A DNA stretch of 64,000 nt from assembly GCA_002308075.1 (NCBI GenBank), contig DBUU01000114.1, forward strand, positions 24,552 through 88,551, written 5' to 3'. The stretch's first letter is position 1. Each line of letters starts with the position of its first letter. Source of the DNA: Alteromonadaceae bacterium UBA1282. GTDB taxonomy: Bacteria > Pseudomonadota > Gammaproteobacteria > Enterobacterales > Alteromonadaceae. The notes under the pieces were generated by a model. The model saw nothing but the letters and a program-made list of their open reading frames with translations, was not told the origin of the DNA and made no database searches. This document shows positions 3,097 to 18,600 of the stretch, piece by piece. The translations under genes and the position numbers were made by a program.

Positions 3097-3621
3097 GTGA
3101 CTACAATAGTATCAGTCAGACGAGATAATCAGGTTGTCATGGCCGGCGATGGCCAGGTGTCATTGGGCAATACCGTAATGAAAGGCAATGCCCGTAAAGT
3201 ACGCCGCCTGTATCAAAATAAAGTATTAGCCGGTTTTGCCGGTGGTACCGCCGATGCGTTTACCTTGTTTGAACGCTTTGAAGCCAAACTGGAACTGCAT
3301 CAGGGGCACCTGACCAAAGCGGCAGTAGAGCTGGCCAAAGACTGGCGTACCGACCGCATGTTACGGCGTCTGGAAGCCTTACTGGCTGTCGCCGATGAAA
3401 CCGCTTCATTGATTATTACCGGTAACGGCGATGTGGTGCAGCCAGAGCAGGATCTAATCGCTATTGGCTCGGGTGGTAACTATGCCCAGGCCGCGGCCAC
3501 CGCGTTATTAAATAATACGCAGTTAACGGCACACGAAATTGCTACTCAGAGTTTATCTATTGCCGGCGACATTTGCGTGTTCACCAACCATAATCAAACG
3601 GTTGAAGTACTCGATTACTAA
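3097..3621 (+). CDS. hslV: ATP-dependent protease subunit HslV
   Basis: Mature N-terminus [19 protein letters not shown]; GTG at 3097 with GGAG RBS gives the catalytic N-terminal Thr. Confidence 0.97.
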
Positions 3622-3693
3622 ATGAATTGTGTTGGCAGTGGCTAAGAAGCGGCTGCCCTACTGACCACCGTCAGTTTTACATAAGGGTTAATT

Positions 3694-5028
3694 ATGTCTG
3701 AAATGACACCAAGAGAAATTGTCCACGAACTGGACCGCCATATTATCGGTCAGCAAAGCGCTAAGCGCGCAGTCGCCATTGCGCTGCGTAACCGCTGGCG
3801 ACGTATGCAGTTAGCGCCAGAACTGCGCCAGGAAGTCACCCCGAAAAACATTTTAATGATTGGTCCAACGGGTGTAGGTAAAACCGAAATTGCCCGCCGT
3901 CTGGCCAAGCTGGCGAATGCGCCGTTTATTAAGGTAGAGGCAACAAAATTTACTGAAGTAGGTTATGTAGGTAAGGAAGTCGAAACCATCATTCGCGACC
4001 TGGCAGACATTGCGGTAAAAATGACCAAAGAGCAGGAAATGGCAAAGGTGCGCTATCGCGCTGAGGAAGCTGCCGAAGAGCGTATTCTGGATATCCTCAT
4101 CCCGCCTGCCGAAAATGCCTGGGGTGAAAAAGAGCGCTCGGAAGATCGCGGTACCCGCCAGTCTTTCCGCAAAAAACTGCGTGAAGGCAGTCTGGATGAC
4201 AAAGAAATCGAAATCGACGTTGCCCAGCAGCAAATTGGTGTAGAAATTATGGCCCCGCCGGGCATGGAAGAAATGACCAACCAACTGCAAGGCATGTTTG
4301 AAAATCTGTCATCTTCTGGTTCGCAGAAGAAGAAAAAGAAATTGCGCATCAAAGATGCCATGAAAGTGCTGATTGAAGAAGAAGCCGCACGGTTGGTAAA
4401 CAAAGAAGATCTTAAGGAAAAAGCCCTCGAAGCGGTGGAGCAACACGGCATCGTATTTGTGGACGAAATCGATAAGATCTGTAAGCGTGAAGGCGCTAAT
4501 TCAGCTGATGTTTCCCGCGAAGGTGTGCAACGTGACCTGCTGCCACTGGTAGAAGGCTCAACGGTGTCAACCAAGCACGGTATGATCAAAACCGACCATA
4601 TTCTGTTTGTGGCATCCGGTGCCTTCCAGATGAGCAAGCCGTCGGATCTGATCCCTGAATTACAGGGCCGTTTGCCTATCCGTGTTGAGCTTTCAGCGCT
4701 AAAAGTGGAAGACTTTAAACGTATTCTTACCGAGCCGAATGCATCGCTTACCGAGCAGTACATTGAGCTGATGAAAACCGAAGGCGTAACCGTTGAGTTT
4801 GCCGAAAGTGGTATTCAGCGAATTGCCGAAGCGGCCTGGCAGGTTAACGAGAAAACCGAAAACATCGGAGCCCGTCGCCTGCATACGGTGCTTGAACGTT
4901 TGATGGAAGATATTTCTTACGACGCGTCTGAAAAACAGGGCGAGACCTACATCATTGATGCCGATTACGTCAATGAGCACCTTGAGAGCCTGGTGGATAA
5001 CGAAGACCTAAGCCGCTTTATCCTCTAA
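3694..5028 (+). CDS. hslU: ATP-dependent protease ATPase subunit HslU
   Basis: [10 protein letters not shown] start, [25 protein letters not shown]-terminal SRFIL. Confidence 0.98.
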
Positions 5029-5037
5029 GCCCAACCA

Positions 5038-5128
5038 TACAAACCGGCCGGTACGTCTGTACCGGCCAGGCTTTACTTGCCACATTCCACTTACACCGTT
5101 GGTATTTGCGTGTACAAGGTTCTGAAAT
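5038..5128 (+). repeat. Left att-like direct repeat (91 bp)
   Basis: TACAAACCGGCCGGTACGTCTGTACCGGCC...AAGGTTCTGAAAT, near-identical to 8770-8861. Confidence 0.95.
5045..5066. terminator. GC-rich hairpin between hslU and the convergent luxR-like 3' end (second copy at 8777-8798)
   Basis: GGCCGGTAC-GTCT-GTACCGGCC perfect 9-bp stem; no long T-run. Confidence 0.5.
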
Positions 5129-5159
5129 TTCCCCCCACTTAGGTTACATCTTGAAGTGA

Positions 5160-5483
5160 CTAACAGAAAGCAATATCGCATCTGGCAGCACATTGTTTTT
5201 AGCAAACAATGGCAAGGCGTATAAGCCTGGCAAACTCTCAGAAATGGTCGGTCGATACGTTAAGCTCAGTGGTATGAAGCGCGGTGGTGCATGTCATTTG
5301 TTTCGGCATGCGACAGCAACCATTATGCTGGATCACGGCGTGGAGCTTCGGCATGTGCAGGAGATGCTCGGCCATGCTGACATTTCTACGACACAATTAT
5401 ATACGCATGTGTCTCGCATCAAGCTTGGTGAGGTGTACAACAAAAGTCATCCCTCAGCTTTGAGTAATGAGTGTTTATATTAA
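5160..5483 (+). pseudogene. Tyrosine recombinase (XerD-like) C-terminal fragment
   Basis: HLFRH, LGHADISTTQLY; frame extends only to a TGA at 5157, so the N-terminal domain and catalytic Arg are missing. Confidence 0.9.
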
Positions 5484-5498
5484 TCAGTACTAGCAATG

Positions 5499-5516
5499 GT
5501 AATGCAAATGCATTAC
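5499..5516. promoter_or_regulatory. Putative PrlF/YhaV autoregulatory operator
   Basis: Perfect inverted repeat GTAATGCA-AA-TGCATTAC just upstream of the prlF RBS. Confidence 0.6.
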
Positions 5517-5549
5517 TATTGCTGTGTGTACTCAATTGAGGATAGCAAC

Positions 5550-5879
5550 ATGCCGCAATTACCATTACAAACTGAATCAACTTTGACGGAGCGATATCAA
5601 ACGACCGTGCCTAGCGTTGTGCGCAAAGCACTGCATTTGGGTAAAAAAGATAAAATCAGGTTTACGGTGGAGCCTAACGGTAGTGTGACGTTATCGCGTG
5701 CCGAGCCTTCTGAAGATGATCCTGCGTTAGATTCATTTTTGGCTTTTTTAGGCAACGATATTGAACAACACCCAGAGAATATTCAAGCGCTAAGTCCTGC
5801 TATGCAAGCGTCTATTCAATCGTTGGTAGAGGGGGTTGAAATCGATTTGAACGCGCCACTAGATGAAGACGACGACTGA
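5550..5879 (+). CDS. prlF: Type II antitoxin PrlF (AbrB-like)
   Basis: ESTLTERYQTTVP...RKAL N-terminus, DPALDSFLAFL, acidic tail; GAGGA RBS before ATG 5550. Confidence 0.88.
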   Translation: MPQLPLQTESTLTERYQTTVPSVVRKALHLGKKDKIRFTVEPNGSVTLSRAEPSEDDPALDSFLAFLGNDIEQHPENIQALSPAMQASIQSLVEGVEIDLNAPLDEDDD

Positions 5880-5881
5880 TT

Positions 5882-6355
5882 TTGGCGGATAGTAGTTTTG
5901 TTGTAAAAAATGGTTGGACGCTATACGCCCATCCTTTGTTTATAGAGCAGTTAGCATCGTTGACTGCTCAAGTTAACGCTTTTAAAGCACGAGACCCTAT
6001 CGGCTACAAAAAGAAAAACGCGACCAAGCGATTAGCAGCAATAGAGAAGCTAATATTCGAAATCATTCCGAATGATCCTACAGCGACTGAATATCGCCAA
6101 GGTTCAACATTAGGTGACAACAACAAACACTGGTTCAGAGCAAAATTCTTCCAACAATATCGACTCTTTTTTCGCTATCATCAAGCATCTAAAGTTATCG
6201 TTTATGCGTGGGTTAACGATGAAAAAACCAAACGCGCATATGAAAGCAAAAACGATGCATATAAAGTATTTGCTAAACTGCTAGCTTCGGGCAATCCACC
6301 TGATAGTTGGGACGCTCTTTTAAAAATGGCTTCTGCTATAACATCAGATAAATAA
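5882..6355 (+). CDS. yhaV: Type II toxin YhaV (RelE-superfamily RNase)
   Basis: NGWTLYAHPLF, WFRAKFFQQYRLFFRY, AWVNDE, GNPPDSW; directly downstream of prlF. Confidence 0.9.
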   Translation: MADSSFVVKNGWTLYAHPLFIEQLASLTAQVNAFKARDPIGYKKKNATKRLAAIEKLIFEIIPNDPTATEYRQGSTLGDNNKHWFRAKFFQQYRLFFRYHQASKVIVYAWVNDEKTKRAYESKNDAYKVFAKLLASGNPPDSWDALLKMASAITSDK

Positions 6356-6390
6356 TCGTCTTTGAACTGCTCAGAATTAGCGGATCATAA

Positions 6391-6744
6391 AATCGATTAC
6401 TGTACTACAAAGCACGGATTTATCATCCAAAGCTAGGGCGATTCCTGCAAACTGACCCTGTGGGTTATGAAGACCAGATGAATCTTTATGCTTATGTGGG
6501 CAATGATCCGGTTGATATGACTGATCCTACAGGTAAATGTATGACTGATTCTAGTGGAAAGCAGACAAGTGGCATCTGTCCTGTATCGGGCGATAGCAAT
6601 GCAGCGGCGTTAGTCCAGGATAGGTTATCTGATCCAAACAGCATTGCTGGGCAGGTAGAGAAACAATTGAATGACAACGGGTCTATCACATTTGTGGACA
6701 CGACTGTTGTTAGCTCTGCAACCAGCTCTGTCATGACACTTTGA
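6391..6744 (+). pseudogene. Orphan Rhs core with truncated C-terminal toxin region
   Basis: In-frame LLYYKARIYHPKLGRFLQTDPVGYEDQMNLYAYVGNDPVDMTDPTG, the Rhs core ending in DPxG; no credible start codon. Confidence 0.9.
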
Positions 6745-7527
6745 TGGATGAGTACATGGCATATCTCAATGTTTACCGCAAACCGCTTGATGGGTGCAAC
6801 CGCTGTGTGCAGCCAATAAATACGATTTGATATTGTGCGTTAAAACTTTATCAAAAAGATGTTCAATCGTGGCCTGTTAACTGCTGACAAGCTTAGTAGC
6901 ATCGACTTACCCACGGTTGGCAGACCATTACCCAAGGCGAATTTTACTGCCGAGGAGGTCGAGCAAATCCTTGAGCAGCCTTTGTTATATGGCTTTAAGG
7001 GTATGCGAGACCGTGTGATACTTGAAACGCTGTTTGCCACAGGTATTCATAGAATAGAACTGTTGCATCTCGATATTGAGGATGTGGATTTTAATCAGCA
7101 ATTGATTAGGGTAAGAAAAGGCAAAGGTAATCGGGAGAACATTTTGCCAGTGAGTGATAGAGCAGTCGAATGGCTAGTGTTCTATCTGACCAAACTTCGC
7201 CTCAAACTGGCAACCTTACACTCGGGCAGTGCGCTGTTTCTAAACGATAAGGGAGCGCGATACCGTGCTTGCGCGTTATCTGATATGGCCTCGCGGTATG
7301 TTCGGTTTGCAGGGTTTAAGCGGTCGGGCTCTTGTCACCTGTTTCGCCATGCAACAGCCACTATCATGCTGGATAACGGCGCTGACATTCGGCATGTGCA
7401 AGAAATGCTGGTCCATGCTGACATTGCCAGCACACAAATCTACACCTTTGTTTCTCGCTCTAAGCTTCGCGATGTGTACAACAAGACACATCCGTCCGCA
7501 TTAAGCGATAAGAGGTTGTTCAGGTAG
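6744..7527 (+). pseudogene. Tyrosine recombinase (XerD-like), frameshifted and catalytically mutated
   Basis: ORF 6859-7527 has HLFRH and TQIY but TGIHRIEL (Arg to His) and LVH instead of LGH; upstream MDEYMAYLNVYRKPLDG is in another frame. Confidence 0.85.
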
Positions 7528-7584
7528 GGCATAATGGCTATTTCTTGCATGTTGAGGTAAAATCGTAGCAACACTGGAGGGTAT

Positions 7585-7743
7585 ATGAAAAACACCGTTG
7601 CAAAGACTGGCAATAGCCAAAAAGGTCGGTTTACCCCGAATATGGATAACTTCGAAGTAAGCCTGAGCTATGAAGGGCTTGCGCTCAAAAAAAGTAATGA
7701 GCGAAAAAGCATTACCAATTTAAAACGGAAGTATGCTCGATAA
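7585..7743 (+). CDS. Small Fic antitoxin (FicA/YhfG-like), 52 aa, not in ORF track
   Basis: GGAGG RBS; MKNTVAKTGNSQKGRFTPNMDNFEVSLSYEGLALKKSNERKSITNLKRKYAR contains the SxxxEG inhibitory motif; overlaps the fic start by 11 bp. Confidence 0.8.
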   Translation: MKNTVAKTGNSQKGRFTPNMDNFEVSLSYEGLALKKSNERKSITNLKRKYAR

Positions 7744-8332
7744 GTACGGGGTAACACAGGATAGATACTGTTACCCCGATGCTGACGTTCTTATCAATCA
7801 CCTTGATATACGCGACGCGGTGTTATTAGCAGAAGCCGAAGCTGAGTTCACCGCTGAGCGTTACAGAACATACGAAGCCCCCAAGCTAACAATAGCTGAT
7901 TTTACGCTGGAGCATCTAAAACAGCTCCACTATCACCTATTCCAGGATGTCTATGATTGGGCAGGTCAGTTAAGAGATGTTGATATTTCGAAAGGCGGCA
8001 CGCGGTTCTGTACATGGTCACGTATTGAGCCAGAAGCCAATAAGCTATTCAACACTATCCCAACTCTTGCGCATGTAGAAACTGAAGAAGCTTTAATATC
8101 AAAAGTGGCTGATGTATTTTGTGAGATAAACTTACTCCACCCATTCAGAGAAGGAAATGGCCGAATTCAGCGCTTCTTCTTCGAGGAAATGCTATTCACC
8201 TTGGGTTATGATGTGTCATGGCCTCGAATACCCCAGCAAGACTGGATAGATGCCAATATAGCAGGGGTAAATTTAGACTTGTCTCTTCTTGAGGCAATAT
8301 TTGCTCAGGCAATCTCATCCGATAGCGAATAA
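7733..8332 (+). CDS. Fic-domain AMPylase toxin (class I, FicT-like)
   Basis: Canonical HPFREGNGRIQR; N-terminal D.YCYP...VL.N.L.I and YDWAGQLRDVDISKG typical of FicT. Confidence 0.92.
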   Translation: MLDKYGVTQDRYCYPDADVLINHLDIRDAVLLAEAEAEFTAERYRTYEAPKLTIADFTLEHLKQLHYHLFQDVYDWAGQLRDVDISKGGTRFCTWSRIEPEANKLFNTIPTLAHVETEEALISKVADVFCEINLLHPFREGNGRIQRFFFEEMLFTLGYDVSWPRIPQQDWIDANIAGVNLDLSLLEAIFAQAISSDSE

Positions 8333-8534
8333 GAAAAAGGTGCTTGTATAGATGACAGGCATGAAACACGAATTAATTTAACCCAGCTAGATTTATCCAG
8401 CATTGCCACATAGAATCAACGATGGATATCGCTTACGAGGAAGTAAGCTGCTCTTTTAAAACCTGCTGGGATGCACCCCTCCTAAATATCAAAGCCTTTC
8501 TGAAAGATAACAGCATGGCTTGTGAATCCGATGA

Positions 8535-8606
8535 TTACTTTATATGCAGGCACGATACTATGATCCAGTTATCTGGCGGTTTTATCCGAACTATCCAATA
8601 GACTGA
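8535..8606 (+). pseudogene. Second, highly degenerate Rhs core remnant, not in ORF track
   Basis: Reads LLYMQARYYDPVIWRFYPNYPID-stop, matching the Rhs core pattern GLxYMQARYYDPxxGRFxSxDP. Confidence 0.75.
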
Positions 8607-8769
8607 ATAACTTATTTTGGTACTGAAAACGGAATTCCTACATAAGTCAAAATAGAAAATTGAATCCAACTCAATTGCGTCGAACTTGCGGGACTTAGTT
8701 TTAGATATTCATAGGCTTCAGTTGTCTAAAGTGTTTAACTGCCACAATACTATCCTGTAACGCCAAACT

Positions 8770-8861
8770 TACAAACCGGCCGGTACGTCTGTACCGGCCA
8801 GGCTTTACTTGCCACATTCCCGCTTACACCGTAGGGATTTGCGTGTACAAGGTTCTGAAAT
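8770..8861 (+). repeat. Right att-like direct repeat (92 bp)
   Basis: Copy of 5038-5128 differing by two substitutions and an A vs CG change. Confidence 0.95.
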
Positions 8862-9066
8862 AGCGGGCCATCAACGCTGCCCGATTACGGATTTCCAGCT
8901 TGCGGTAAATATTAGCGCAGTGAAATTTCACCGTTCGCTCACTGATAAACAATTGCGAAGCGATGGTCTTGTTCGGTAAGCCTTCGATAATTTTATGCGC
9001 CACCTGAAGTTCACGTTTAGACAACTGTTCCAAATGTTCAGGGCTTAATAACTCTTGATCAAACAT
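8824..9066 (-). CDS. Stand-alone LuxR-family HTH regulator
   Basis: LSKRELQVA...GLPNKTIASQLFISERTVKFHCANIYRKL; GGAG RBS, start overlaps the exporter stop. Confidence 0.88.
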   Translation of the reverse strand: MFDQELLSPEHLEQLSKRELQVAHKIIEGLPNKTIASQLFISERTVKFHCANIYRKLEIRNRAALMARYFRTLYTQIPTV

Positions 9067-11230
9067 GATGATCTCCTTGTTGAGTGGGGGTTGGTAAATC
9101 AGGCGTATAATTGATGGCTACTTCCGTCAGCTGGCCGCCTGCCAGGTGATACCGCTGATGGGCCATTTGAATGGTTTCGCGCCGATGGGCAATAACCACC
9201 CGGGTCATGGGTAATCGGGAAAGATGTTGATTAATAAGCTTTTCACTGTTGGCATCAAGATGGCTGCTGGCCTCGTCGAGTAGCAGCAGAGCCGGACGCT
9301 GATACAAGGCCCGGGCGAGAAATAAACGCTGGCGCTGGCCGCCACTAAAATTGCTGCCACCTTCCTGGAGCAGCGTGTAATACTGCATAGGCAGCCTGGT
9401 GATGGTGTCGTGCAGATTGGCCAGTTGGCAGCACTCTATTAACCGTGGCATGTCGATATGTTGCTGAAAACCACTGACATTGTCGATAACGGTGCCGGAA
9501 AGACACACATCATCCTGCATTACGGCACTGATCCGCTGGGCTGGATCGCGGCTGTTGAGCGGCTTATCGTCAATCAGGATCTGACCTGAAGTGGCCGGAA
9601 GTAAGCCGGTAAGGCATTTAGCCAGGCTGGACTTTCCGTTGCCGCTAACGCCGGTGATTACTACCATTTGGCCCGGTAACACTTCAAGGTTTAGCCCTTC
9701 GAAAAGCGGCGGTTGACCCTGATAGGCAAAGCTTAAATCCTCGATAGTTAGTTTGTGCGCCACAGGTACATGGGCTGGCGCACTGCAAGAAACAGGAGCC
9801 AGTGAGGCAAAGTCTACGGGCGTTTGGACAATATCCGCCAGCCTGTCGAGGTGCACGCGCAATAAACGCCACTGAAGTAATTGTTCGAGTAATCCGTTGA
9901 TAGCTGAATTAAAGCGGTTCTTGTAGCTGGTAAATGCGTACAGCATGCCAACGGTAAAAGCCTGCTCCATCACCAGCGTGGCAGCCAGATAGACGACCAG
10001 TAGGTTTTCAATTCCAAACAGGAGCAGATGCACGATACTAAAACCCATTTCCCAGCGGCGTAAGCGAATATCACGGTTCAGGGTATCGGTAAGTAAATGC
10101 TGCCAGCCATGTAACCGGAACGACTCGAGCTTAAGCATTCTGATTGACTGAATGCCCCTCAGCGTTTCTATAAAGTGGCTGTTTTCCTTCGCGGCACAGG
10201 CAATTCTTTCTTGTTGTAAGCGCTGCACCGGGCCTAGCAAAATTAACCGTAGGGCAAGAAATAACCCCGCAATGCCTACTACCACCAGCATTAGTTTCAG
10301 GCTGTATAACGCCATTAAAATCAGTGTGCACAGCATGATTAGCGTGTCTAAAATGAGCGCGACAATACCCTGACTGATAAAGCGTCTGACTTCCTGCAAG
10401 CTACCAAAACGAGCCACCATGTCACCGATATGGCGCTGGGAAAAGTAACTGAATGGCAGCCGGATCAAATGAGTAAAGACATTTACCGAGAGTTGCTGGG
10501 CGAGGTGCCCAGACATAGCAATGCCGGCAGTCTGGCGGGTAAGATTGGTGATCGCTTCCACAACAATTAGCAGAAAGAAGCCGAGAAACAGCACATTGAG
10601 CAGCGAAGCATCGTTATTGACTATCACTGAGTCGATAACCAGTTGCATATAATAGGGCGATGCCAGCGCAAAACATTGCAGCAGCAAAGACAAAATAAAC
10701 AACACCAGTAAGGAGCGCTTGATACCTACGATACGCTGCCATAACTGGCTGAGCTTTAATGGCTGGCGCAGGTTTTGAGGCGTGAAGTCACTGCCAGGCT
10801 GAAGCTCCAGTGCAATACCGGTAAAGGCATCACTAACCTGTTGCCAGCTAAGACGGCGTTTGCCACATGCCGGGTCCTGAATCTCAATACCCTTCGCTGA
10901 AACTTTGGTTAACACAACAAAGTGCTGCATGTTCCAGTGCAAAATGCAGGGGAGCTGTAGCTCGTTCATATTCTCTGGCTCAAGCTTTAGCGCCCGGCTA
11001 TTGAGGTTGAGTGAGTGAGCGAAATCAATCAGCTGTTTAAGGTTAGCACCCTGCTGGCTGAAGGCGCGTAAGCTGCGTAGCCTGGCCAGGTCTATATTGA
11101 GCCCGTGATAGCCGGCTACCATGGCGATACAGGCCAGTCCGCATTCGGCGTTTTCGGCTTGCAATATCTGCGGCGTCGAACGGCGCCAGCCGAGCTGCAA
11201 GGGTAGTTTGAACAGTGTGGCGGTGCTCAC
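9059..11230 (-). CDS. Peptidase-containing ABC transporter (C39 domain; CvaB/RaxB-like)
   Basis: QAENAECGLAC, LHWNMQHFVVL, DP; TM domain; GVSGNGKS, FSGGQRQR, LLDEASSHLD. Confidence 0.93.
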   Translation of the reverse strand: MSTATLFKLPLQLGWRRSTPQILQAENAECGLACIAMVAGYHGLNIDLARLRSLRAFSQQGANLKQLIDFAHSLNLNSRALKLEPENMNELQLPCILHWNMQHFVVLTKVSAKGIEIQDPACGKRRLSWQQVSDAFTGIALELQPGSDFTPQNLRQPLKLSQLWQRIVGIKRSLLVLFILSLLLQCFALASPYYMQLVIDSVIVNNDASLLNVLFLGFFLLIVVEAITNLTRQTAGIAMSGHLAQQLSVNVFTHLIRLPFSYFSQRHIGDMVARFGSLQEVRRFISQGIVALILDTLIMLCTLILMALYSLKLMLVVVGIAGLFLALRLILLGPVQRLQQERIACAAKENSHFIETLRGIQSIRMLKLESFRLHGWQHLLTDTLNRDIRLRRWEMGFSIVHLLLFGIENLLVVYLAATLVMEQAFTVGMLYAFTSYKNRFNSAINGLLEQLLQWRLLRVHLDRLADIVQTPVDFASLAPVSCSAPAHVPVAHKLTIEDLSFAYQGQPPLFEGLNLEVLPGQMVVITGVSGNGKSSLAKCLTGLLPATSGQILIDDKPLNSRDPAQRISAVMQDDVCLSGTVIDNVSGFQQHIDMPRLIECCQLANLHDTITRLPMQYYTLLQEGGSNFSGGQRQRLFLARALYQRPALLLLDEASSHLDANSEKLINQHLSRLPMTRVVIAHRRETIQMAHQRYHLAGGQLTEVAINYTPDLPTPTQQGDHHV

Positions 11231-12486
11231 AACACACCTCCACGCAGTTCATACAGTGGTTCAAATAACCATTGCATCAGGTTGCGCTCGCGAATGGCTA
11301 TTTCTGCGGCAAAGGTCATGCCGGCTCGCAGGGCAATGCGTTGATTAAAATATTCAATGCTGGTGGCTTGCAGGGTTGCCTTGGCCAGGTACACCGGGGT
11401 GTTTATTGCCAATGGTTTTTGCGCTACTTCCTGTGGCAGTAGCAAGTGAGCAGATACCGAATCGATGGTGGCTTTATAGGTGCCAAACTGGGTATGCGGA
11501 AAGGCATCGTAGCGTAAACTGATGGATTGGCCTGGGGATATCTGGCCCGCCGCGGCGACCGGGATTAACAATTGTGCAGAGACCTCGGCGTTAAATGGCA
11601 TCAGCGAAAGCAGAGGCACATTGCTCTGGGCGAACTGGCCTGGCTTTACATTGAGGTTGGTTACCCGGCCGTTTGTGGACGCGGTAATAATGACTTCCTG
11701 CTGACTGTACTGCTGATCGAGACTTTTTTGCAGTTCACTGATTTGGTTTTCAATACTCAGCAGCTGTAACTGATGGGCGTGTTCCGCTTCGCTAAGGGCA
11801 AACTGGTTGTCTTCAATGGCTTGTAAGGTGGCTATCCATTCGCGCTCAAGATTCTGACGCTGATAGGTTTCGTCGATTCGCTGCGTCTTTAAGGTTTGTA
11901 ATTGCTGGCGGCTGGAAAATCCCTGATGGGTGAGTTCGGTGAACGACTGAATTTGCTTATCCAGTAAGGCCATTTTGTCATCCAGCAACATGCGCATGGC
12001 GGCGAGGCGTGAGCGATCCTCAGTGAGTCGTTGGGCCGTTTTAGTCAGGCGTTGCTGTTGGGTTGTGAAACCTTTCTTGGTAAGCCTGTACTGGCTTTGC
12101 AGACGCTCAATCTGCGTGTCGAGCTCCTGAATCAGAGCGTCGTTGATACTCTGGCCGTTATGTAAAATTGCGTCCCGGGTCAGCCTGATAAGTGGAGTGC
12201 CTTTTTGCACCTGCGTGTTTTCGCTAACCAGCACTTCGCTAACAATAGCGCCTGATGCCGGTCCGTAAACCGGGGTAATACCGCGGGCGGGTTCCAGCCA
12301 GCCTGTTACGGTTTGGGTATAAGTGTAGCGTCCCGCCAACAGCCAGCTTAAAACACCAATTAACCAGCTACACAGCAGCACGGTAATCATAAGAGTGGGT
12401 AGTCTTGGCCTGAGTAATATTGCTCCATCGATTTTTTGCTGCTGTGAAACGACGGCCTGGTGGCGAAATAATGTTTGGCTTTGCAT
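11227..12486 (-). CDS. HlyD-family membrane fusion protein (CvaA/RaxA-like)
   Basis: LFRHQAV N-terminus, one TM, coiled coil, RYDAFPHTQFG, LRAGM; ATG 12486 preferred. Confidence 0.9.
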   Translation of the reverse strand: MQSQTLFRHQAVVSQQQKIDGAILLRPRLPTLMITVLLCSWLIGVLSWLLAGRYTYTQTVTGWLEPARGITPVYGPASGAIVSEVLVSENTQVQKGTPLIRLTRDAILHNGQSINDALIQELDTQIERLQSQYRLTKKGFTTQQQRLTKTAQRLTEDRSRLAAMRMLLDDKMALLDKQIQSFTELTHQGFSSRQQLQTLKTQRIDETYQRQNLEREWIATLQAIEDNQFALSEAEHAHQLQLLSIENQISELQKSLDQQYSQQEVIITASTNGRVTNLNVKPGQFAQSNVPLLSLMPFNAEVSAQLLIPVAAAGQISPGQSISLRYDAFPHTQFGTYKATIDSVSAHLLLPQEVAQKPLAINTPVYLAKATLQATSIEYFNQRIALRAGMTFAAEIAIRERNLMQWLFEPLYELRGGVL

Positions 12487-12770
12487 GGCGTCCATTCCTG
12501 CTGTGGGTTGATGATTCAACCTTATGCCTGAGAGCCCTGGTTCACGGTGAAGGTCAGGCCTGGTGCGCTTATTGAGGGGACGATCGCTGACTGATGTCTC
12601 AAAATGCAGGTGTATGTCTCATTTGTGTAAGCCGTTGAAACACTGGTCTGACAGTTGTTGCAGGTCAAAGGTATGCTGACGGCGGCTTTCCTAATGCAGA
12701 TTGTTAATATATTGTGGTTAGCAAAGAAAGCTCTACACTTGATGTATGTTTTGCCAAGGAAGCCGTAGTT

Positions 12771-14315
12771 ATGTTTATACCCAGTATTTTGCTCCGTCAG
12801 TTGTACACCCATGGGAGCCTGACGCAAACTGAAGATGGTTTGCAGTTTATGCTTAAAAACCGGCTCAAAGATGCCGTGCTCAAACAGGTAGACAGTATTG
12901 CCATAAACGGGGAAGTTATTGCGCCTGAAAATGTCACGCTGCAGGTTGGCCCTGAGCAAATTATGTCGATGACAGAGCTGAATGAAAGCGGTGAAGTACC
13001 TTTTGAGCTTAAGCAGGCCATTACGGTTTACTTAAATAAAACCCTGCCAGTGAGTCCGGAAAAACATACTATCGAACTGGTGTTCCGGGCCTCACCTTTC
13101 GGCAAACTGAAATTCAGCGTTGAAGATAACGTATCGGCGCCGAATCTGGCTGAAGGGCATATTCCCCGCGATCCGCATGATGATTACTCGCCGGGGATTA
13201 TCGAAAAACGCCAGAAGTTCTTTGAAAACTTCTCCGGCGCTAATATTCACCATGTTGGCCAGTACTCCATTGATCCCAATACCCTGCGCGGCAATATCGA
13301 GCACTTCATTGGTGTGGCGCAGGTGCCAGTTGGCGTGGCGGGGCCGGTCACTATCGACGGCGAGCATGCCAAAGGCGATTTTCTGATCCCAATGGCCACT
13401 ACCGAAGGTACCCTGGTTGCTTCTTATAATCGCGGTATGAAACTGCTTAATATGAGTGGCGGGATCAAATCCACCGTGGTGGATGATGCCATGCAGCGCG
13501 CGCCGGTATTTGTGTTTTCTGATGCTCGCGGCGCGCGGGATTTCGTAGCCTGGGTAAACGAGAATATCGATAAAATCCGCGAGGAAGCAGAAGCCACCTC
13601 ATCCATTGCCAAGCTCACTTATATTGACAGTTTCCTGTCTACCAAGTTTGCCTTTTTGCGCTTCAATTACCGTACCGGCGATGCAGCAGGGCAGAACATG
13701 GTGGGGCGCGCTACATTTGCTGCCTGTGGCTGGATCCTCGATCACTATGAAGGCATCGAAAACTTTTATCTGGAGTCCAACTTCGCCACCGATAAAAAAG
13801 CCTCGCAAATTAATATCATGCGTACCCGGGGTAAACGGGTGATTGCCGAAGCGACCATTAAGCGCGAGCATTTGTTGTCGGTAATGCGGGTGGATCCTAA
13901 ACAGATTGATTATCACGGCCGGGTAGCGGGCGTCGGCTCCTTCTTGTCGGGCGTCAATAATACTGGCTTACACTCGCCTAATGGCATTACCGCGATGTTT
14001 ATTGCTACCGGGCAGGACGTGGCCAACGTGTCGGAGTCCTCCGCTGGTATCATGTATTCTGAGCTGACCGAGGAAGGCGATTTATATATCTCCCTGACTA
14101 TTCCGTCGCTCATTGTGGCGACTTATGGTGGCGGTACCGGTATTGGTACTCAGCGTGAGTGTCTGGAATTACTGGGCTGTTATGGCCGGGGTAATGTGTA
14201 TAAGTTTGCCGAAATCGTTGGCGCGGTGGCGCTGGCGGGTGAAATTTCACTGGCCTCTGCAATCTCCAGTTCCGACTGGGTGTCTTCGCATGAGCAGTAT
14301 GGCCGTAACCGGTAA
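12771..14315 (+). CDS. Class I HMG-CoA reductase with extra N-terminal domain
   Basis: EHFIG, PMATTEGTLVAS, TGDAAGQNM, NFATDKK, TYGGGT, C-terminal His; ATG 12771 after AGGA. Confidence 0.88.
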   Translation: MFIPSILLRQLYTHGSLTQTEDGLQFMLKNRLKDAVLKQVDSIAINGEVIAPENVTLQVGPEQIMSMTELNESGEVPFELKQAITVYLNKTLPVSPEKHTIELVFRASPFGKLKFSVEDNVSAPNLAEGHIPRDPHDDYSPGIIEKRQKFFENFSGANIHHVGQYSIDPNTLRGNIEHFIGVAQVPVGVAGPVTIDGEHAKGDFLIPMATTEGTLVASYNRGMKLLNMSGGIKSTVVDDAMQRAPVFVFSDARGARDFVAWVNENIDKIREEAEATSSIAKLTYIDSFLSTKFAFLRFNYRTGDAAGQNMVGRATFAACGWILDHYEGIENFYLESNFATDKKASQINIMRTRGKRVIAEATIKREHLLSVMRVDPKQIDYHGRVAGVGSFLSGVNNTGLHSPNGITAMFIATGQDVANVSESSAGIMYSELTEEGDLYISLTIPSLIVATYGGGTGIGTQRECLELLGCYGRGNVYKFAEIVGAVALAGEISLASAISSSDWVSSHEQYGRNR

Positions 14316-15692: not shown

Positions 15693-18600
15693 TTAGTGGT
15701 TGGTATGCTTCCAGTGATACTGGTGCGCCTTGGCCTCCACTTCTGTCGCCGTTTGCTGCGGCATAAAGGCTTTGTTGTTACCTTCAAAGAAGAACGGCTG
15801 GCGTTTTTGCTTGCTACCCATTTCGTTCATCGTGGCAACGTCATACACGCGGCCGTTAATCACGGTGTAGGTGACATATTCACTGCGACGGATGTCGTTA
15901 AGCACGTCGCCGTCGGTGATCATCAGATCGGCCAGTTTACCCGGCTCAATGCTGCCGAGATCCTTGCCCATGCCAAGATGCGTTGCGCCATCAATGGTAG
16001 CACCGCGCAGAGCTTCCCACGGCGTAAAGCCGCCCTGATTCATCAGCCACATTTCCCAGTGAGCAGCTAATCCTTCACGCTGACCATGCGCACCAATATG
16101 TACACTTACGCCATTATCGCGCAGCTCTTTTGCGTATTCAGCCACATTTACGTGGTTGTACTGATCATCTGGCGCGGTAGGGCGGCGAATGGCACGGCCA
16201 TCCAGTCTGGTAGAAGGGACATAACGTAGCAGGCGTTCGTTCTTCCACACTTCGGTGCGATCGTACCAGTATTCTTCACCCATCAGGCCACCGTAAGACA
16301 CCACAAAAGTTGGCGTGTAACCAAAGTCGGTGGCTTTCCATAACTGGGTGAGGTCGTCATAGCCACGGGCAATGGGCAGCGAATGCTCAAGGCCGGTATG
16401 ACCGTCAACCAGCATGGTCAGGTTTTGCTGGAACTTACCACCGCCTTCCGGCACCACCATCATTTGCTGATTATTAGCGGCCCATAACACCTGCTGGCGC
16501 TGATCACGACGTGGCTGGTTATAGCTTTTCACCGAAATGGCGCCGGCGTCTTTCAGGCGCTGCACATGGAAGTAAGCATCGTCATAGTTATTTATTTGCG
16601 CTTTATAGCCGATACCCTCTGCACCGTACAGAATAGTCCCGGTAGAGTAGATGCGCGGTGCAACGCGTTCACCTGCACGTTGCAGCTCTGACGCGGCAAA
16701 GATTTCAGTGGTATCGTTAGACGGATCGTGAATGGTGGTCACACCGAACGACAGGTTGGAGTATTGCATCCAGTTTTGCTGCGGAATGATCTCACTGCGA
16801 CCCTGTCCGCCGTGGGCGTGGGTATCCACTAACCCGGGCAGAACGGTTTTACCTGAGGCATCAATCAGCATAGCGTCGCCGGGGATATCCACGTCGCCGC
16901 GCTTACCTACCGCGGCAATGCGGTTATCCAGGATCAGCACCACACCGTCTTCGATAACTTCCCGGGTATTGTCGGCATCGCGCATGGTGACCACGGTACC
17001 ACCTACGAGCGCCTTATAACCGCTGGGCTTGTCGCTGGTGGCGGTGAAGCTCAAATCGAGGCCTTCAGAGAGCGGATCCGGCAGTTCATCGGCCGATTTA
17101 CCACCGGTAAAGGCAAACGCGTCTTCCAGCTTACGCTCAAAATAGTAGGGGCCATGGAACCAGCCTACACTGCTGCTATCCGGCGCCCACGTGAGGTACT
17201 CTCCGGCGCGATCAGACAGCTGAGTCACCGGCAGAGAAGACATATTCGGGCCAATTGTCACTTTCTTACCGTTGTCTACGTATGGCGTAACGTAGGTATT
17301 AAACTGATGAACAAATGCAACCCATTTACGATCCGGCGACAGGCGGTATTCCGCTACCTTGTCGGCGCCGTATAAATGCACCCGATGGTCGTCGCCATGC
17401 AGGTTTACACTGGCCAGTTGGGTGGCGCCGTAAGGAGAATCGTAACTGCGTTCGGTAAAGAACAGGCGCTCATTGTCGCCGGCAAAGTGGGGCTGCATAC
17501 CTGAATTGGTGACCTTTTTCGGTTCGCCTTTATCCAGGTCCATCACGTATAAGCCTGGCTCTACCGAATACTTCGGGTCAAGCAGGTAGCCGCCGGTAAA
17601 TTTACGGTAGGTCACTAACTCGCCATCGGGTGAAAACGCCGGCTCTATGTAGTGCCCCGGCTCAGGGGTTATGACTTTGCCCTTACCACCACGGGCAGAG
17701 ACGATGCGAACATCACCTAACTTCTGGTCGTTCCAGGTAGTGTAGATAATGCGCTTACCGTCGGCAGAATAGCGTGGGTAGTATTCATCATGCTCATCCT
17801 GACGGGTGAGGCGTTTCGCTTTGCCACTTTTTAAATCTTTAACGTACAGTTTGCCCAGCGCCTGAAACAGCACAGATTTACCGCCCGGCGATTTTTGCGA
17901 CCAGCGGATCATTTTTACGTTAAAGGTATCCGGTGCCACGTCTACATCAAAACGCAATGCATCGGCGTATTGCAGTTTGGCCTCAACGGCGATATCGATG
18001 GTGTCTGCCGATTGATCTTTTACATTGAGCTTATGAAACTTTCCGCCGGCCCAGTACACAATCGCTTTGCTGTCAGGTGTCCAGTCAAAGTAGGCATAGT
18101 AACCTTCTACACCAAAGCCTTCCTGCATATCGCGCTCCATATCGCGGGTGAGCAGCGTTTCTTCACCGGTGGCAAGGTCTTTAATGAACAGCGCGGTGTC
18201 GTACTTCACCCGACGTAGAAAAGCAATGTACTTACCGTCTGGTGAAGGGGTTGGTACCACGGCGCCGCCAGTACCGGAGATAACGCGGTCTTCTTCACCG
18301 GTAGTGCGATCAAAGCGGGTAATGGCAAAAATGCCTTCCAGCGGATCGCGATTATAGTCGAAGCGGTAACCGCCAGAGGTACTCTGGGTATAGTAAATAT
18401 AGTTGCCATCGTGAGAGAACACCGGATCGGTAATGTTGTTTTGCTCACGTTTACCGGATACCCGCTCTTTAATCGGCAGACCGCTACCGCCGGAATGATG
18501 ATAAATCCAGATTTCGCCCGCCGGGATACTGCGGGTAGAGGTAATGCCTTTGGTCACCACAATATATTCGCCATCCGGGCTCCATTTAGGCGAGTGAATG

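Follow-up and report, generated by a model that had tools for sequence, protein, structure and literature searches.

The stretch of DNA analyzed here (the window) comprises 64,000 nucleotides of Alteromonadaceae bacterium UBA1282 (assembly GCA_002308075.1, contig DBUU01000114.1, positions 24,552 to 88,551). Downstream of hslU it carries an islet (5129 to 8750) of two units on the same strand, each with a tyrosine recombinase remnant, a toxin-antitoxin (TA) pair, and a short fragment encoding the end of an Rhs core (Table 1). The G+C content of the 3.7-kb stretch after hslU is 0.39 to 0.48, compared with about 0.52 on either side. Few polymorphic toxins are as widespread as the Rhs proteins, whose genes take their name from the rearrangements that they cause. 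We describe the islet together with the recombinase-bearing, Rhs-linked loci that surround its relatives in other bacteria. The parts named in a first-pass annotation of this DNA were recovered at or near where it had placed them, all on the plus strand, and its hand count of about 61 of 96 C-terminal residues shared by the two recombinases compares with 64 of 104 aligned residues in our alignment. Beyond that annotation, we found 110-nt repeats bounding the islet, defects in both recombinase genes, and a toxin tip truncated at 6741.

Table 1. Features of the islet and its left and right borders, with positions in the window.
Feature	Position	Strand	Description
hslU	3694-5028		Gene order priA, ftsN-like, hslV, hslU, then islet
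Left 110-nt direct repeat	5019-5128		hslU stop codon, terminator hairpin, pseudo-copy of luxR-type gene 3' end
Rec1'	5160-5483	+	C-terminal 107 residues of tyrosine recombinase; Pfam Phage_integrase, E 9e-17, profile positions 91-169 of 172
prlF	5550-5879	+	Antitoxin, intact, unit 1 cargo; PF15937, E 8e-35; NF007429, 131.8 bits (cutoff 125)
yhaV	5882-6355	+	Toxin, intact, unit 1 cargo; PF11663, E 2e-61
attR1 arm (putative)	6382-6402	+	GGATCATAAAATCGATTACTG; non-coding, putatively element-derived flank abutting Rhs core-end fragment; L090 junction at 6403-6404
Rhs core-end fragment	6391-6537	+	YYKARIYHP class; directly after in-frame stop; ends ...NLYAYVGNDPVDMTDPTGK
Truncated toxin tip	6538-6741	+	First ~68 residues of a tip that runs ~179 residues past the core-end motif in L048
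Rec2'	6741-7527	+	Recombinase pseudogene; 93% DNA identity to L001 10175-10959, only from codon 59 on
ficA-like	7585-7743	+	Antitoxin, intact, unit 2 cargo; 52 amino acids, SLSYEG
fic	7733-8332	+	Toxin, intact, unit 2 cargo; HPFREGNGR; PF02661, E 3e-19; NF007672, 178.9 bits (cutoff 181)
attR2 arm (putative)	8520-8540	+	TTGTGAATCCGATGATTACTT; resembles arm of L001, bearer of the 95%-identical recombinase
Degenerate Rhs core-end remnant	8541-8606	+	YMQARYYDP class; reads YMQARYYDPVIWRFYPNYPID*; expected tip and immunity gene lost
Inner segment between the two arm/core boundaries	6405-8542		2138 nt; missing in L090 and in part of the run X14 population
Right 110-nt direct repeat	8751-8861		93% identical to left; continues into real luxR-type 3' end

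The closest intact relative, P0001, is a protein of 319 residues that is 95% identical to the recombinase of unit 2. The unit 1 remnant, Rec1', is 62% identical to P0001 residues 214 to 318 and retains the HxxR, H, and Y residues; its N-terminal two-thirds are gone, including the first Arg and the Lys region, and weak similarity may extend back to about 5135. The unit 2 copy, Rec2', is without codons 1 to 58 and has a frame break between 6797 and 6859; in addition, its catalytic arginine (R161) is replaced by histidine (TGIRR to TGIHR), and an invariant glycine is replaced by valine. All 25 aligned homologues retain R161, K186, R260, H283, and Y292, and the full R-K-H-R-H/W-Y catalytic set is absent from both window copies. 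Both recombinase genes are dead. Other assignments of the recombinase were rejected. P0001 scores 201.3 against a cutoff of 335.15 for chromosomal XerC (TIGR02224) and 211.8 against 329.6 for XerD (TIGR02225), with lower scores for the window fragments; a single-copy housekeeping resolvase acting at dif does not fit several copies per locus in repeated units with mobility genes, or copies on plasmids. P0001 likewise falls short as an integron integrase (103.2 bits against the TIGR02249 cutoff of 265, with the best stretch covering profile positions 248 to 303 only) and as GmtY of GMT islands (20.4 bits against the NF040693 cutoff of 340).

Both TA pairs are complete. PrlF and YhaV are encoded by adjacent, intact genes of a type II TA family, and an identical YhaV protein occurs at the same site in 6 further contigs. 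In the second pair a small antitoxin open reading frame (ORF) lies upstream of a gene with a Fic motif: HPFREGNGR matches the motif HPFx(D/E)GNGR of class I Fic toxins, and SLSYEG fits the (S/T)xxxE(G/N) inhibitory motif of FicA/VbhA-type antitoxins. Homologues of ficA precede fic at two related loci (L020 and L024; L numbers designate loci and contigs in our collection), and another homologue is found in L048 (59 to 62% identity). The window copy is a dead relic with only the two TA pairs intact, as would be expected if addiction modules outlive their vehicles.

The first Rhs fragment covers the final 47 positions of the RHS repeat-associated core domain (TIGR03696, 66.7 bits against a cutoff of 32.5; profile positions 29 to 75 of 76). 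Its motif reads DPVDMTDPTGK, and an in-frame stop lies 4 codons ahead of it. Window 6403 to 6738 is 92.6% identical to L048 4634 to 4969, and the full L048 tip carries an HEFSH motif; comparison with this longer homologue indicates that the window tip is cut exactly where Rec2' starts. A YD-repeat shell and an N-terminal delivery domain were not found in the window, which has no rhs gene and no ORF of more than 1119 amino acids, and both Rhs pieces are orphan fragments. The window also holds no immunity-gene array and no complete orphan module of tip plus immunity gene, the first tip being cut and joined to Rec2' and the second fragment being tipless.

To survey relatives, an alignment of 25 homologues was scanned against one genome per species, and 80 of the 570 candidate stretches were taken. 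Rhs core ends were located with a hidden Markov model built from 70 seed fragments; an earlier regular expression had missed the variants of Actinobacteria and Acidobacteria. The resulting 78 loci belong to Alteromonadales, Shewanella, Colwellia, Rheinheimera, Pseudomonas, Cellvibrionaceae, Lysobacterales, Verrucomicrobiota, Myxococcota, Acidobacteriota, and Solirubrobacterales. A core end lies downstream of the recombinase on the same strand at 53 loci and on the opposite strand at 1, and upstream on the same strand at 37 loci and on the opposite strand at none. At 55 loci the downstream sequence extends for 3 kb or more, and 46 of these have a same-strand core end there. The sole opposite-strand case consists of two head-to-head elements of Shewanella pneumatophori (L024, 5971 on the plus and 9620 on the minus strand) with inverted core-end sites. 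Because this linkage is conserved, the repeated order of recombinase, TA pair, and Rhs fragment in the window is not a product of chance, and the coincidence that the first-pass annotation had allowed for does not apply. The order that it described, with recombinase, variable slot, and Rhs core-end fragment in succession, is repeated among relatives in many genera and phyla, and the tandem stacking that it proposed is seen in L019, L053, L060, L077, and L085, where each unit has its own recombinase. Near-identical copies in tandem also occur.

The upstream core ends are often the ends of long rhs ORFs (to more than 1600 amino acids), 5 to 9 kb from the recombinase, and the downstream ones are usually short, with 30 to 60 codons after a stop, counted to the NxYxY...DPxG motif. 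Together they form direct repeats of 150 to 190 nt that are 73 to 99% identical and that flank the recombinase in L013, L015, L019, L027, L029 to L031, L035, L049, L068, L077, and L078. As in other integrative elements, direct repeats holding the 3' part of the target therefore bound the recombinase-bearing segment. The TA families of the window also recur: PrlF-YhaV follows the recombinase in L001 to L012 and in L018, and FicA-Fic follows it in L020 and L024. Ten marine metagenome contigs with P0001 carry, in this order, a 90-amino-acid ORF, IstA, IstB, a 160-amino-acid ORF, the recombinase, PrlF, and YhaV. Stop codons follow YhaV and then RLLYYKARIYHPKLGRFLQTDPVGYEDQMNLYAYV, a core-end fragment that opens at the same residue as that of the window and continues into a tip unlike the window's and a small membrane ORF. 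Intact units are carried by the isolates Neptunicella marina S27-2, Rheinheimera soli BD-d46, and Aestuariibacter sp. GS-14. On a plasmid of A. macleodii QZ9-9 (NZ_CP098773.1) a 1706-amino-acid RHS protein is followed by a hypothetical protein, istA, an ATPase, a second hypothetical protein, the recombinase, MerR, an ATPase, and an S8 peptidase. A compact form (L106) is found at about 95 to 105 kb on the megaplasmid of Ralstonia pseudosolanacearum GMI1000 (NC_003296.1). There, rhs is followed by two small genes, the recombinase homologue, and two orphan tips. Ahead of each tip stands a flank of about 140 nt, the two flanks being 93% identical, and these orphan fragments start only about 15 codons before DPxGL. 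At one further locus (L058) a tRNA-gene-like direct repeat of 98 nt (1203 to 1300 and 16574 to 16670) flanks a larger region with an rhs-linked unit, and the region between these repeats may be a bigger island carrying the rhs locus.

For the YMQARYYDP class, the non-coding flank of the downstream core ends was compared at 17 unique orphan sites. Immediately 5' of the coding homology, a stretch of 21 nt, which we call the arm, is conserved (GGaTCGTA.tTCgtAcTAATT), and there is no conservation upstream of it. The 26 nt after the arm, TATATGCAGGCACGATACTATGATCC, are nearly invariant between genera, third codon positions included. Three full-length rhs genes have no arm and carry ordinary coding sequence in its place. 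In the HMNGRIYD and YYKARIYHP classes the break falls at the same codons, and the arms end in ...CGATTAATT or ...GATTACTN. L001 and window unit 2, whose recombinases are 95% identical, have a common arm, GTGAWTCCGAT(GAT)TACTY, which stands next to a YYKAR core in the one and a YMQAR core in the other. The arm thus appears to track the recombinase clade and not the core class, as would be expected if the arm is derived from the element and the core from the target. Arm and core can be read as an inverted repeat (GGATCGTAGT...ACTATGATCC) or as a direct repeat (CGTACTAAT...CGATACTAT), and the two readings fit equally well by eye. The core-end DNA itself is nearly identical in many rhs genes and genera, at synonymous positions too.

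The site is polymorphic. In a sister Alteromonas (L090, GCA_034189895.1) the sequence is 100% identical to window 3600 to 6404 and 98.7% identical to 8533 to 9300, and the inner segment, 6405 to 8542, is missing. The junction reads ...GGATCATAAAATCGATTACTG-TA-TATGCAGGCACGATACTATGATCC..., with arm 1 joined to core 2 within GATTACT(G/T)TA, a stretch common to both sites. Beyond it the two sites are only about 65% alike over the next 26 nt, and long homology is therefore unavailable for an exchange of this type. Depth data were taken from assembled contigs of metagenome runs. In seawater run X14, a contig with the joint 6402>8541 has a depth of 10.9 and the inner segment a depth of about 4, indicating that both forms coexist in this one sample. 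L090 and X14 thus provide the presence/absence polymorphism, with an exact junction at the candidate attachment sites, by which integrative elements are recognized. Over 8466 to 8606 the metagenome contig depth is 10 to 20 times that of the flanks, and breaks in contig homology cluster at 8533 to 8541, where some contigs run on into arms and others into full rhs coding sequence.

Four genes stand ahead of the recombinase in Gammaproteobacteria: the 90-amino-acid ORF, which has weak PrtN/Xis-type similarity (E 5e-3), IstA, IstB, and the 160-amino-acid ORF. IstA, IstB, and the 160-amino-acid ORF form a tight string with the recombinase (L001 7243 to 10020, with equivalents in L012 to L041). IstA and IstB pass the NCBIfam IS21 equivalog cutoffs in the relatives (163.8 against 160 and 229 against 200, respectively) and are absent from the window. 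The IstAB identities do not follow those of the recombinases, indicating that mobility modules are shuffled. No Pfam or NCBIfam match was found for the 160-amino-acid ORF, ORF334, or the tip and immunity genes of L001. At the two loci of a distant clade that were examined (L049 and L068), the gammaproteobacterial module is replaced by a protein of about 1040 amino acids with a DnaG zinc ribbon, a Toprim domain, and a P-loop; its residues 155 to 270 or so, the stretch between zinc ribbon and Toprim, are homologous to the 160-amino-acid protein. Also present in L068 are an Xre-type repressor and, after the rhs tip, a colicin-type immunity gene. The primase/helicase-like protein, the repressor, the immunity gene, the PrtN/Xis-like ORF, and the near-identical tandem copies are hallmarks of integrative and probably replicative mobile elements.

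Between the recombinase stop and the arm we scanned 93 ORFs at 40 loci. PrlF/YhaV, Fic, AbiEii (with DUF6088), DUF4411 with an M78 peptidase, and PIN domains have two members each. ParE and SocA were also found, as were parts of CBASS (HORMA, cyclase, patatin, E1-E2, and CapP) and the PADLOC candidates PDC-S04 and RmrA. Often the slot holds only two small genes in 0.8 to 1.3 kb. The interchangeable TA slot between recombinase and Rhs that the first-pass annotation had proposed is thus borne out as a slot rich in TA and defense genes.

Units without a recombinase also exist. With the 47-nt site (arm plus core end) as its only seed, a further search gave 15 metagenome contigs, and 5 of the 11 with at least 2 kb of upstream sequence have a same-strand recombinase upstream. 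L110 carries a full rhs gene and, after 1.1 kb, an arm and an orphan. L117 (Ga0209603_1002381) carries 7 same-strand Rhs core-end fragments, most of them 1.0 to 1.5 kb apart; no recombinase homologue was detected on this contig, and it looks like an integron-style cassette array. In several genera the tip-immunity modules tend to end in TTTGAATCCAAAGCC, followed by a GC hairpin and a T-run (L015 2102 to 2222 and 15447 to 15568; L029 2718 and 11829; L019 3989; L017, L020, L024, and L025). This motif, which is absent from the window, looks like a common 3' boundary or terminator of the cassettes.

From these comparisons, the islet is probably what erosion has left of two integrative elements, one stacked on the other, that have rhs genes as their target. 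The family to which they would belong is best read as integrative and partly integron-like, with its attachment site in the DNA that encodes the end of the Rhs core. Its main business appears to be the swapping of rhs toxin tips, with TA and defense genes carried as cargo. The first-pass annotation had suggested a family serving addiction, defense, or competition; the TA and defense genes would be passengers rather than the apparent main function. It had also counted the Rhs core as a gene of the unit, whereas the Rhs piece would be an attachment-site scar followed by a displaced older tip. With the piece seen in this way, the functional register would run core end, tip, immunity gene, mobility genes, recombinase, cargo, arm. 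The tip at 6538 to 6741 would go with recombinase 2 and not with unit 1, where the earlier grouping had placed it.

An intact element would start with a promoterless rhs 3' cassette, comprising about the last 45 core codons, the toxin tip, and the immunity gene, and would continue with a mobility or replication module, the XerC/D-like tyrosine recombinase of about 319 amino acids, the slot for TA or anti-phage cargo, and the arm of about 21 nt. In the mechanism that we propose, the recombinase would catalyze the joining of the element site (arm plus core end) to the same core-end DNA of a resident rhs gene, presumably by way of a circular intermediate. The incoming tip would be fused in frame to the host Rhs delivery shell, which could then deploy it, and the old tip with its immunity gene would be displaced downstream as an orphan headed by the arm. 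Repeated insertions would stack units, and recombination between neighboring arm/core sites would remove or add the intervening DNA; because neighboring sites could recombine, tip-immunity cassettes without a recombinase would behave like integron cassettes. In the window, unit 1 would then be Rec1'-PrlF-YhaV-arm1, and unit 2 would be core end-tip'-(deletion)-Rec2'-FicA-Fic-arm2, followed by the last core-end scar. Element 2 may have brought the YYKAR-class core end and tip, having entered a YMQAR-class target, and element 1 may then have inserted into the left junction of element 2. Later deletions would have removed the rhs gene, most of Rec1, and everything from the tip to Rec2 codon 59.

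Several observations weigh against this interpretation. About one-sixth of the well-flanked survey loci show no downstream core end. The islet is not in an rhs gene, and it sits between 110-nt hslU/luxR-type repeats that the model leaves unexplained. The IS21-type genes have no assigned role in it. A second rhs copy of L030 shares 98% identity with the occupied core end and only 92% with the orphan; from a simple crossover at the left boundary this would not be expected without later gene conversion. When the metagenome contigs were searched for the circle junction predicted for the window segment, itself dead, no exact match was found. As both window recombinases are dead, the recent exchange seen in L090 would call for an enzyme acting in trans or a microhomology deletion, and the L090/X14 junction may be such a deletion.

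Other explanations fit parts of the evidence. Chance juxtaposition of unrelated pseudogenes and TA pairs would suit a local copy that is fragmentary and lies outside any rhs gene, but the survey refutes it, since the order and even the TA families recur beside homologous recombinases in other genera, and we consider it hardly credible. We think it unlikely that tips are displaced by RecA-mediated homologous recombination only, with the recombinase in a hitch-hiking island and the flank reflecting shared ancestry. The 150- to 190-nt repeats are long enough for RecA, the occupied core end of L030 is closer to its paralogue than the orphan is, and homologous recombination of orphan tips with the main rhs gene is known (PMC3967940). 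Nevertheless, such recombination fits poorly with an arm that, among elements with recombinases only 56 to 62% identical to P0001, is conserved when everything 5' of it is not, with a boundary at the same codons in three diverged core classes, and with the fixed strand and position of the recombinase (53 loci against 1). In the window, moreover, a YYKAR core stands beside a YMQAR scar, and L090 joins them at a common stretch of 9 nt, which is too short for RecA.

The elements could instead be products of a host-owned capture platform, in which a resident recombinase collects cassettes in the manner of integrons or of the Bacteroidales rAID and the unit itself is not mobile. Cassette arrays without a recombinase (L117 with its 7 core-end fragments, L110, L111, L017, and L020), the conserved terminator-like motif that closes each cassette, and the same logic in rAID (PMC12247911) speak for such a platform. 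We regard it as quite unlikely, given that the repeated segment includes the recombinase as well as replication or transposition genes and a repressor, that tandem stacks carry one in every unit, that the spread over phyla is patchy and includes plasmids, and that the recombinase scores 103 bits against the integron-integrase cutoff of 265. Movement of the units by IS21-type DDE transposition (IstA and IstB), with the tyrosine recombinase as a cointegrate resolvase only, is very improbable in our judgment. TnpI acts as a cointegrate resolvase in Tn4430, and in the gammaproteobacterial clade IstA and IstB, which qualify as IS21 proteins by the NCBIfam cutoffs, stand in one tight string with the recombinase. 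Against this, no consistent pair of terminal inverted repeats was found in L001, L015, and L027, and none that pairs the arm with a site upstream of istA; the flanking repeats are 150 to 190 nt long rather than a 4- to 8-bp target duplication; and the distant clade and Ralstonia keep the linkage of recombinase and rhs without IstAB.

The integrative-element interpretation can be extended to a fuller proposal, to which we give about equal weight for and against. In this proposal the loci would form a multi-phylum family with an attachment site inside the Rhs core-end coding DNA, with autonomous members, which have a recombinase and genes for replication or transposition, and non-autonomous tip-immunity cassettes moved in trans. 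In-frame entry would hijack the host delivery shell, displaced tips would pile up, and TA and anti-phage systems would be carried along, so that the family would supply the missing mechanism of Rhs C-terminal displacement, integron-like but acting through translational fusion.

New Rhs tips have been known since about 2009 to arrive by horizontal transfer and to displace old tips downstream. Jackson and colleagues reportedly described Rhs C-terminal displacement and orphan rhs-CT (C-terminal)/immunity arrays in 2009, and the literature on displacement arrays, to our knowledge, invokes homologous recombination or leaves the insertion unexplained. Such arrays are also treated by Koskiniemi et al. 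2014 (PMC3967940). The present loci resemble them in having short core-end fragments with tip and immunity gene stacked behind a full rhs gene, where new tips displace old ones, and differ from the arrays as described in that a dedicated recombinase, a conserved non-coding arm, and a fixed break point go with each insertion. In rAID of Bacteroidales, a tyrosine recombinase is associated with orphan immunity arrays whose biogenesis is called an open question (PMC12247911). In both systems a tyrosine recombinase is linked to arrays in which orphan polymorphic-toxin modules share one orientation and have conserved motifs between them. However, rAID has one recombinase heading an immunity-gene array that is read as defensive, whereas the present units have their own recombinase, mobility genes, and full tips, and lie in or behind a live rhs gene with the site in rhs coding DNA; rAID is set apart here by its description and not by recombinase homology.

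As in integrons (IntI, attI, and attC), a tyrosine recombinase would put promoterless cassettes beside a platform for their expression; arrays build up, and some cassettes have no recombinase. Unlike in integrons, the site lies within protein-coding sequence, insertion would be an in-frame fusion rather than placement behind a promoter, and many units are autonomous. Islands that insert at 3' ends and P4-like satellites share the tyrosine integrase, primase/helicase, repressor, and attL/attR repeats holding the 3' part of the target, but here the target would be a toxin gene whose original 3' end is not restored but replaced by a new toxin domain and immunity gene. The chromosomal XerC/XerD resolvases have the same fold and the closest curated profiles, and differ from the mobile, multi-copy context seen here, in which the recombinase is no housekeeping gene. 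XerC/D genes beside polyimmunity loci were noted by Zhang et al. 2012 (PMC3482391), and "Rhs-associated integrases" were noted in bee-gut bacteria by Steele et al. 2017 (PMC5727410). A role in capture was guessed at in each case and left open in the latter study; no site, mechanism, or element anatomy was given for these loci, which we set apart from the present family by their description. The full-text literature searched, with subscription journals outside its coverage, mentions recombinases close to polymorphic-toxin loci only in passing, and we found in it no description of these elements or of an attachment site in the rhs core. The family is widespread and, as the first-pass annotation had supposed, apparently undescribed as a system.

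If a dedicated recombinase with a defined site of about 47 nt is at work, it would open the question of how Rhs tips are inserted to a direct test, and would account both for orphan fragments that all start at the same codons and for the nucleotide-level conservation of the rhs core-end stretch between genera. One vehicle would then join interbacterial weapons, addiction modules, and anti-phage defense, and cassettes and defense cargo could be searched for by looking between the recombinase and the arm. The window itself holds a smaller lesson, that of a fossil in which only the TA pairs survive.

Each 110-nt repeat at the borders of the islet contains the hslU stop codon, the terminator hairpin, and 38 nt of the luxR-type 3' end. 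As an attachment site of the element family these repeats were rejected, as they have no likeness to arm or core. Among related Alteromonas the hslU/luxR-type site is found in four states: empty, with one copy of the 110-nt sequence (L100 and L102); with PrlF-YhaV only (L090); with FicA-Fic only, retaining window 5129 to 5179 and the last 15 nt of Rec2, where the repeat version is 125 nt; and with both pairs, as in the window. Because of these four states we read the islet as old and as eroding differently in each lineage while the TA pairs persist. The first-pass annotation had looked to hslU/luxR as a site of tandem arrays; on the present comparison it is evidently a lineage-specific location in these Alteromonas and not a general target of the family. 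The window is part of an Alteromonas genome. Proteins identical to those of the window also occur in the metagenome-assembled genome GCA_002173075.2, and the names in the HslU cluster include A. oceani and A. alba. On the 3' side, the islet adjoins a bacteriocin-export-like trio (8824 to 12519, minus strand) of a small LuxR/GerE-type regulator, the luxR-type gene at 8824 to 9066, followed by a C39-peptidase ABC exporter and its HlyD-type partner. Farther on, an HMG-CoA reductase gene (12714 to 14315) lies beside a DUF4136 lipoprotein gene and a glyoxalase gene.

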